From Somniosus microcephalus (lineage: Eukaryota), in NCBI GenBank assembly GCA_052327205.1, contig CM126229.1, positions 10,788,001 to 10,852,000 of the forward strand: a stretch of 64,000 bases of DNA. The letters run 5' to 3'. The position numbers and the translations under genes were made by a program. The notes under the pieces were generated by a model, which was not told where the DNA came from, did no database searches, and worked only from the letters and a program-made list of their open reading frames with translations. Positions 42,701-45,700 of this stretch are shown in pieces; position 1 is the stretch's first letter; every line of letters starts with the position of its first letter.

Positions 42701-45700
42701 GATAGAATCCTAAATTAAGTTGTGATGGAGTGTTAAGTTTATAATGTCTAAGGTTGGAATGTCAGCAGTTCGGATTAGCTAGTGATCAAATCTATGTCGA
42801 GGAAGGAACAAGGCAGGAACGTTGCTGATCTTGGCTAGGTTGGAAGAGCTGATTTACATTTGGTTAATATGCGACGCAAACCATAGGTTGGCGTGTGGTG
42901 CGGTCTTCCTCTCACTCCTTTCTTAGTAACTTTATTTCTGCTTTTGCAGCTGAACTCCTTTGAACAGTTGTGCATCAACTACACAAATGAAAAGCTGCAG
43001 CAGCTCTTTAATCATACAATGTTCATCCTGGAGCAAGAAGAATACCAGCGAGAAGGAATTGAATGGAACTTCATTGATTTTGGCCTTGACTTGCAGCCTT
43101 GCATTGACCTAATTGAAAAATCTGTGAGTCTTTATTCCCTTAATACTTTCGGCTAACTAGCTTCCCAGAAGCATATTGGGTTTAACTGGTTTAACTTTTG
43201 TTAAATTTGTGTTTTTTTCAGGCTAGTCCTCCTGGTATCCTGTCTCTGCTCGATGAAGAGTGCTGGTTCCCCAAAGCCACTGATAAGACATTTGTGGAGA
43301 AGGTGGTGCAGGAACAGGGAACCCACCCCAAGTTCCAGAAACCTAAGCAGCTAAAAGACAAGGCTGACTTCTGCGTTCTGCACTACGCTGGCAAGGTAGA
43401 CTGAGCCAAAGCTTGATGGGGCTGTCATTTACATAGATTAATCTATCAGAATCACCATAAGTGCATAAGCCAAGCTTCTCATTCAATTGCCATTTTGTTG
43501 AGCTGTTTTATTCTCCTGGCCTGAGCTCTCCTATAAAATACATGAAGGTACAATATGTACACCAGTCTTTATAACCAGGGCTCAACAGTTGAAATAATTG
43601 ATTTCCCTCTGTACCCTGTGATAGTATTTATATAAGGTATTTTCTCTTTGCAATGCAGGTGGACTACAAAGCAAACGAATGGCTGATGAAGAACATGGAC
43701 CCTTTGAATGATAACATTGCTACCTTACTGCACCAATCCTCGGATAGGTTTATAGCTGATCTCTGGAGGGATGGTATGTTAAAATTAGTAACCAGGGGCT
43801 GTCTAAAGTACTTTCATTCAATGTTTATTGTAACTTTTTTTTCAAAGGCACCTAGCCAACTTCTCATGCCTTCTAGACTGAGGGTAACAACACTATCGAG
43901 CATTCATGTGTTTAGTTCAGTGTTTTCAGTCACTTGCTAAAATCTGAGAATTCTGAAAACCCTCACAGCATATACCCAATTATAATGCTAGGATTGCAGG
44001 GGTCCAGCACAGACATACCCTTCAGTATGCAAGGATTCCTTAATTGATCTAGTGGACACGTGCTAGCCGTAAGTTTTGGCGAATTTTAATTACCACCCCA
44101 CTCTAACTTGTGACATGCAGATGGGACAATCCAATCATCACCTCTTTACCTCAGGCAAGTTTCACTTGCTTAGAAAAGGAAATAAGAAATTACTTTAGGC
44201 AACCCATTTCTAAGTGTTTGGTAAACTGAGCAGTGGAGTGTTTTCGTCCCAAACTTGTTGAAAGTACTTGGATGTGCACTTGGGATGCTCTAACCTGCAG
44301 GGCTACGGACCAAGAGCTGGGAAGTGGGATTAGACTGGATAGCTCTTTGTTGGCCGGCACGGACACAATGGGCCGAAATGGTCTCCTTCCTTGCTGTAAC
44401 TTGCTATGATTCTATGAAAAGAATCATAGTTGGCAATTAGACTTTACTTTTAAGACAATTAGCGCTGAAAATATTAGGGTAGGTTTTGTAGAATGCAAGG
44501 ATGGTCATTTTTCTGCCATGTAGCACAGAATATATTCACTCACTCACTCTTTGGTTTGCTGACTTTTGAGTGGCCCTGTGTGAAACTTATAGTATTAGAA
44601 ACTACATAACTGGCAGAGTAAGTTCCTTGCCAAACGGTAGGATTCAGTCTGTTTAATTACAATCGCTCATTATTTTCACCTGTAAAATGTTCTGTCTTTA
44701 GTTCTACACTCTCATTCCCACCTCCCCTTTAGCACACCATTTCTCAGAAGGTAGGCAGGTGATCTGCTCACAGGCCTTAGCTAATACTGTTCCATAACTT
44801 GACAAGATGTGAGAAAAGTGACTTCTTTTTCTTTGATATCTCCCTCCTCCCTCTTTAGGAGAATGCCTGGTCTGTGCTCAGCACCTACTCCTGAAGATGC
44901 AGCCTACACTGTAATTGCTAAATTACTCATTTACAAATAACGAAGTACCAAAGGAGACCAAATCTTGTGTATCTTGCAGTTCTCATTGTTAATATGATTT
45001 ATTTTTTAAAGGGATCATTTTTTTTTCTTTTTGTCTTGTTGATGTCTCTGTGTCTGTTGCAGAGATAAAAAGCTTTCAGAGAGCCTATTTCTATACACGC
45101 TTTCCTATTCTACATCTAGAACCAGGTGACGTGAGAGAGGAGGCTGTGATAGTGCCGTAGATCGATGCTTCCGAGAATCGCCTGCTTTGAATGCTCATCT
45201 TTCCTCTCCATTCCTGCTCGTGCGATTTCTTTTCTGTTTCCCCTTTGCTTCAGGTTAATGCAGCTCAACCATTTCAACAGCGCCTCATCCTGAGCTGCAG
45301 TGGTGAAACATCTTCCACCAACTCGTAAGCAAAATGCACCTGTGTGGAAAAAGTTGAAACTAACTTAAATATTGACTCATTTTCCAGTACGAGGAATTTT
45401 CTTCTGCATTCGATAATGAGACTGTAATTTCATAAATATAACCATCTAGTTTTTGTTAGACCTAAATTAAGATGCTCAAGTTTTACTCCAGGGACTTGGT
45501 ACCCTGCCAGCTTCTCTAAGACAATGATGGACAAACTAATTCTCAATTAGGCATTCCATGTTTTTAAATGTCAATCTCCACAATTCCCTCTTCTCTCCCA
45601 CCCCCACCTTCCCATGCCACACACCATTCCTGTGCTAAGAATGGAGGAAAACGGGCATCAAGCTGCCAGACATTTTTAGTGCCAGTCTCGAATGGGCTGC

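Follow-up and report, generated by a model that had tools for sequence, protein, structure and literature searches.

A probable elasmobranch orthologue of the MYH9 A2 loop-2 cassette exon, with a weak 5′ splice site, in Somniosus microcephalus

The stretch of DNA analyzed here (the window, 64,000 nucleotides of Somniosus microcephalus contig CM126229.1) carries a myosin heavy chain gene, along which shark MYH9 aligns from about residue 170 to 1130 (tblastn). The exon encoding loop 2 proper has myosin-9 as its best PDB match and, in a database search, matches myosin-9-like proteins of sharks and rays at 95-98% identity. Four close paralogues of the myosin are found in this genome, and their relationships were addressed with a tree built from the cores of four exons (25 rows and 219 columns, no named MYH11 row). 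The window groups with elasmobranch MYH9 (98/98) inside the MYH9 clade (85/83), locus C21 groups with elasmobranch MYH10, and locus C43 groups with Xenopus MYH14 and “myosin-10-like” rows (87/91). Locus C11 falls outside the named clades and, in a tree without a named MYH11, is presumably MYH11. By sequence, the window gene is elasmobranch MYH9, as the initial annotation had held, and is separate from the MYH10 and MYH14-like loci of the same genome. Near 19346050 in locus C43, the reading frame shifts within the P-loop exon of the MYH14-like gene; the cause is an error in the assembly or a genuine break.

Elsewhere in the window, 36700-38200 is occupied by a GC-rich (62%), low-complexity intron insert that contains purine-rich arrays and, at 36936-37184, 10.4 tandem copies of a 24-nt unit that are 99% identical. 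Long open reading frames at 21297-25256 and 25911-26813 on the minus strand and at 47299-48100 on the plus strand, whose read depth is raised by copies elsewhere in the genome, we take to be LINE (CR1-like) ORF1 and reverse-transcriptase fragments.

The features of the loop-2 region all lie on the plus strand. The upstream constitutive exon (43659-43773), equivalent to exon 15, ends in phase 1, and the downstream constitutive exon (51147-51340), equivalent to exon 16 and containing loop 2 proper, begins in phase 1. The intron between 43773 and 51147 is 7373 nt long and holds a 63-nt, phase 1-1 cassette exon at 45063-45125, which encodes 21 residues located where loop 2 begins. Its acceptor (45040-45062) consists of a pyrimidine/TG-rich tract of moderate strength and a CAG ending at 45062, and its 5′ splice site (45126-45131) is GTGACG, with a non-consensus C at +5. 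The position, length, phase and flanks first proposed for this exon were all confirmed in the sequence, and its stop-free open frame translates into the same 21 residues.

The splice signals were scored with a matrix trained on the 21 constitutive exons of the window. The acceptor reaches 6.8 bits, third lowest when set beside the range of 2.2-14.7 in the 21 constitutive acceptors, so that calling it strong was an overstatement. The donor reaches 7.0 bits with the corresponding matrix, and its GTGAC pentamer occurs in none of the 21 constitutive donors of the window. A matrix scan of the intron ranked the exon second of 34 in-frame candidates. These scores are unremarkable: the splice sites by themselves do not raise the exon above chance, and the exon call rests on homology. 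The 63-nt sequence is single-copy in this genome.

A counterpart of this exon has been described in mammals. In mouse and human MYH9, the 63-nt exon A2 encodes 21 amino acids of loop 2 (Das et al., 2023, PMC10480317), lies in the intron that separates exon 15 from exon 16 (PMC10480317; Mallick et al., 2026, PMC13158602), and has the second base of a Glu codon as its first nucleotide (PMC10480317). A2 inclusion in mouse is about 15% in brain and 5% in muscle, and A2-containing protein was detected in mouse brain (PMC10480317). The Glu-codon start, the 63-nt length and the exon 15/16 position all match in the shark exon. Compared by eye, the window peptide is identical to the printed mouse A2 at 16 of 21 residues, and the window exon matches human A2, as read from two mutagenesis primers, at 17 of 21 residues and 53 of 63 nucleotides (PMC10480317). 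Judged by these matches, the exon at 45063-45125 is the elasmobranch orthologue of MYH9 A2, and both the exon and its function are already published; the premise that MYH9 is usually treated as insert-less was mistaken given the mouse and human reports (PMC10480317; PMC13158602).

Database proteins extend the distribution of the exon. Among 120 protein matches listed, 78 contained both flanks, and eight of these (three turtles, a gecko, three birds and a marsupial) carry a 21-residue insert, each 15/21 identical to the window. Among the elasmobranch MYH9 matches listed (21 named species, with one cluster represented by 15 of 19 members), the insert is present in two of 51 proteins and missing from 49. 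Both are RefSeq models of the small-spotted catshark (XP_038639471.1 and XP_038639472.1), 20/21 identical to the window, which makes this the one species of the 21, among those matches, with an annotated insert isoform; catshark RefSeq holds isoforms both with and without the insert. At least one shark therefore already has the exon, first described here as unannotated, in its gene models, and the isoforms from turtles, gecko, birds, marsupial and catshark contradict the idea that it is special to this lineage. A 2008 paper by Li, Lalwani and Mhatre, “Alternative splice variants of MYH9”, which three reviews cite, may have described MYH9 loop inserts earlier. Among the titles and abstract openings searched, mostly of non-subscription papers, none dealt with splice inserts in shark NM II; PMC13158602 presents an alignment of 10 species.

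Conservation of the exon is not confined to the protein. Of the 16 full codons encoding residues identical between shark and human, 14 are themselves identical (counted by eye), compared with 69/127 and 63/128 identical codons (49-54%) for constitutive exons of paralogues in the same genome (binomial p 0.006 and 0.002, rough values given that the baseline is a paralogue comparison). A contig from run X1, which is from another species, has four substitutions in the 516 nt of a block around the exon (44838-45353, plus strand) versus 41 in 1324 nt of adjacent intron (Fisher p=0.002). Run X11 tends in this direction too but is not firm: no substitution is listed in 45036-45142, compared with 21 in its remaining 361 nt (p=0.006), and p would be 0.32 in the worst case if three unlisted rows fell there. 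The codon comparison, approximate as it is, and run X1 suggest that conservation of the exon is very deep, synonymous sites included. Directly upstream of the block, 34 nt present here (44804-44837) are missing from the X2 and X3 contigs and lie outside the X1 pieces.

The relationship to loop-2 exons of other myosins was addressed with a profile of 12 non-MYH9 inserts, mostly from ray-finned fish MYH10 plus one snake protein. Applied to four paralogue introns, the profile picked out the window exon as the best match (6.9 bits, E 0.004; next, -0.5 bits), which upholds the proposed homology to the B2 exon of MYH10 and supports a common origin of A2 and B2 for the N-terminal half. That the loop-2 exon is older than the MYH9/MYH10 split, as the initial annotation also suggested, follows from this homology. 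A match of -0.5 bits in the MYH10 intron was considered as a B2 remnant and rejected, being out of phase with the nearest acceptor and not significant. The MYH10 loop-2 intron (C21:40956083-40957175, 1090 nt) has no B2-like exon. Neither the profile nor tblastn nor the candidate scan picked up a B2- or C2-like exon in the loop-2 introns of C21 (MYH10), C43 (MYH14-like) or C11, with two of the searches limited to 2000 residues and C2 being too divergent for firm exclusion by profile; tblastn of the insert against the paralogue loci gave short matches only, with no fitting exon. Loop-2 inserts are also missing from all 40 elasmobranch MYH10 proteins among the matches listed (large clusters being represented by 15 of 23 and 15 of 47 members), while teleost and sturgeon MYH10 do carry them. 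Elasmobranch MYH10 has likely, if not provably, lost B2.

In transcripts, the state observed is skipping. The skip junction 43773>51147 was seen in runs X1 and X19 (in X19 as two reads with one start) and, together with the lack of the insert in 49 of the 51 elasmobranch MYH9 proteins among the matches listed, marks skipping as the state of the main transcript. Inclusion junctions were absent among the joins listed (8 of 19 runs), in data of low depth with unrecorded tissues and with contigs that drop rare variants; a further 37 join rows and 915 loose-end rows lay behind repeats in one of the listings, and the result counts neither for nor against inclusion. Two raw-read RNA runs, of which 24% and 31% of reads were used, covered the exons about fourfold or less. 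Unspliced contigs span the exon in runs X1, X2, X3 and X11, and none of the runs listed as containing exon sequence is on record as RNA.

Regulation of A2 has been examined in mouse, where the weak GTGACT donor causes skipping and a stronger donor increases inclusion (PMC13158602). RbFox3 raises A2 inclusion about 6.5-fold, MBNL1 and NOVA1 raise it about 3.8-fold, and mouse GUGACU was proposed as an RbFox site (PMC13158602). Because GTGAC is kept, this mechanism likely applies to the shark as well. Downstream of the shark exon, eight YGCY motifs cluster at 45153-45284 (plus strand), all within 200 nt; the maximum for constitutive exons (n=21) is five, and five of 319 window bins reach eight. 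We take these motifs to be candidate MBNL sites, and their enrichment, in one of 24 motif tests, is only suggestive. TGCATG does not occur within 200 nt of the exon, and counts around it of the motifs that we assigned to RBFOX, NOVA, PTBP, CELF and QKI were unremarkable.

Taken together, it is highly probable that the exon is an A2 orthologue that is mainly skipped, is probably spliced into a minority of the transcripts in neural tissue, and would yield a nearly inactive myosin IIA that still binds actin. If the shark follows mouse and human, its weak GTGAC donor would lead to default skipping, and RbFox, MBNL1 and NOVA1 would promote inclusion, with the minority of neural transcripts that include the exon gaining 21 extra loop-2 residues. 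For human HMM, A2 gives a Vmax of 0.017 versus 0.38 per second; the A2 form tethers actin without gliding and co-precipitates with the uninserted form, and 20% of it in a mixture reduces velocity from 274 to 53 nm/s (PMC10480317). Because 17 of 21 residues are identical, we infer that the inserted shark motor would behave like the human one. On the mammalian model, the inserted motor would have more than 10-fold lower actin-activated ATPase and no measurable gliding, with actin binding kept, and would co-assemble with and drag uninserted myosin IIA, producing slower mixed filaments. The insert carries a net charge of +1 in shark; amniote A2 has -1, and fish B2 ranges from -1 to -4. Because charge varies in this way among A2 and B2 inserts, the insert more likely affects the actin-activated step sterically, by its length or shape, than by its charge. 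Inhibition by a loop-2 insert is not automatic, since C2 makes NM IIC constitutively active, and an extended loop 2 may raise activity in some NM2 isoforms (review PMC11335295). Overall, a minor brake-like myosin isoform in the shark is likely.

The most durable alternative, to which we give little credence, is that the exon is kept mainly as a regulatory element at the RNA level and is rarely translated in elasmobranchs, where the protein isoform would carry little weight. High synonymous and flanking conservation, annotation in only two of the 51 elasmobranch proteins among the matches listed, and the unspliced contigs of runs X1, X2, X3 and X11 would all be consistent with such a role; however, shark and mammal share the frame and the 63-nt length, the exon is part of catshark gene models, A2 protein is found in mouse brain, and low inclusion (15% in brain, 5% in muscle) is the mammalian state as well (PMC10480317). 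It is very unlikely that the exon is included and that its insert, in the manner of C2 in NM IIC, switches the shark motor on or frees it from regulation instead of silencing it, for although C2 frees NM IIC from light-chain phosphorylation (PMC10480317; PMC11335295) and the shark insert has a net charge of +1 rather than the -1 of amniote A2, it has 16-17 of its 21 residues in common with the inhibitory A2 of mammals, among them the entire central aromatic motif and the C-terminal part, and B2 is likewise inhibitory. That the gene is instead MYH10 and the exon B2 is refuted to near certainty by the tree, where the window falls within MYH9 and C21 within MYH10, and by full-length identities of 8-9/21 to B2 versus 15-20/21 to A2, even though fish B2 matches the first 11 residues (5-8/11) about as well as amniote A2 does (7/11).

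The same MYH9 gene has a microexon in loop 1 at 16833-16853 (plus strand; 21 nt, phase 0, seven amino acids). It is present in 28 of the 51 elasmobranch MYH9 proteins among the matches listed, counting unnamed assembled ones, while three of 84 bony-vertebrate MYH9 proteins have some loop-1 insert and none of these resembles the shark microexon. A TGCATG lies at 16792, 41 nt upstream. The loop-1 introns of C11, C21 and C43 each contain one candidate microexon of 18-21 nt, ending in Tyr and followed by a GTGAGT donor, which suggests one ancestral loop-1 microexon for MYH9/10/11/14. For mouse MYH9, no loop-1 splicing was found by Das et al. (PMC10480317), and a review lists a MYH9 A1 form, citing a 2008 paper (PMC11335295).

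We lean towards a broader evolutionary reading, as a whole, in which the loop-1 and loop-2 cassettes are older than the vertebrate MYH9/10/11/14 duplications and met different fates in different lineages. In elasmobranchs, MYH9 alone would then have kept the loop-2 brake, its weak donor and synonymous sites having barely changed since sharks and mammals diverged, MYH10 would have lost B2, and MYH9 would also keep a commonly included seven-residue insert of the SM-B type that is absent from bony-vertebrate MYH9. If true, shark NM IIA has both an accelerator exon and a brake exon. The orthology itself points to the retention across jawed vertebrates of a low-abundance isoform, whose motor is inactive in the human form, along with its suboptimal donor. 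The span between shark and mammal is about 450 million years. Such deep retention of exon and donor argues that NM IIA2 is selected rather than splicing noise, and the conserved bases are candidates for mutation in the mouse minigene. The exon finding itself adds little, and only the comparative details may be new; among these, the apparent loss of B2 and the MYH9 loop-1 microexon are modest points not met in the literature searched.

The closest known system is NM IIA2 (PMC10480317; PMC13158602), which shares with the shark exon the host gene, junction, 63-nt length and phase, as well as the GTGAC donor and default skipping. The donors differ at the sixth base, GTGACG in shark versus GTGACT in mouse, a departure from the GUGACU proposed as an RbFox site (PMC13158602). 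The shark intron is 7.4 kb, whereas the mouse minigene measures 3.8 kb including both flanking exons, and four residues of the insert are unlike human A2, such that kinetics may differ. Catshark myosin-9-like isoforms X1 and X2, which are predicted models, have the insert at the same place with one residue different. The B2 exon of MYH10 shares the junction, the 21 amino acids, the N-terminal half and the inhibitory effect; however, it belongs to a paralogue, has an acidic, unrelated-looking C-terminal half (8-9/21 overall), and in mouse has an optimal donor (PMC13158602), unlike the weak shark GTGACG. The C2 exon of MYH14 uses the same junction, and the snake myosin-10-like insert, probably MYH14, has the N-terminal pattern; in mammals C2 encodes 33 amino acids and makes the motor phosphorylation-independent (PMC10480317), compared with the 21 amino acids of the shark insert. 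For loop 1, the C11 candidate microexon resembles the seven-residue smooth-muscle SM-B insert described in PMC13102872, and the MYH9 loop-1 microexon appears homologous to that insert in position and ending.
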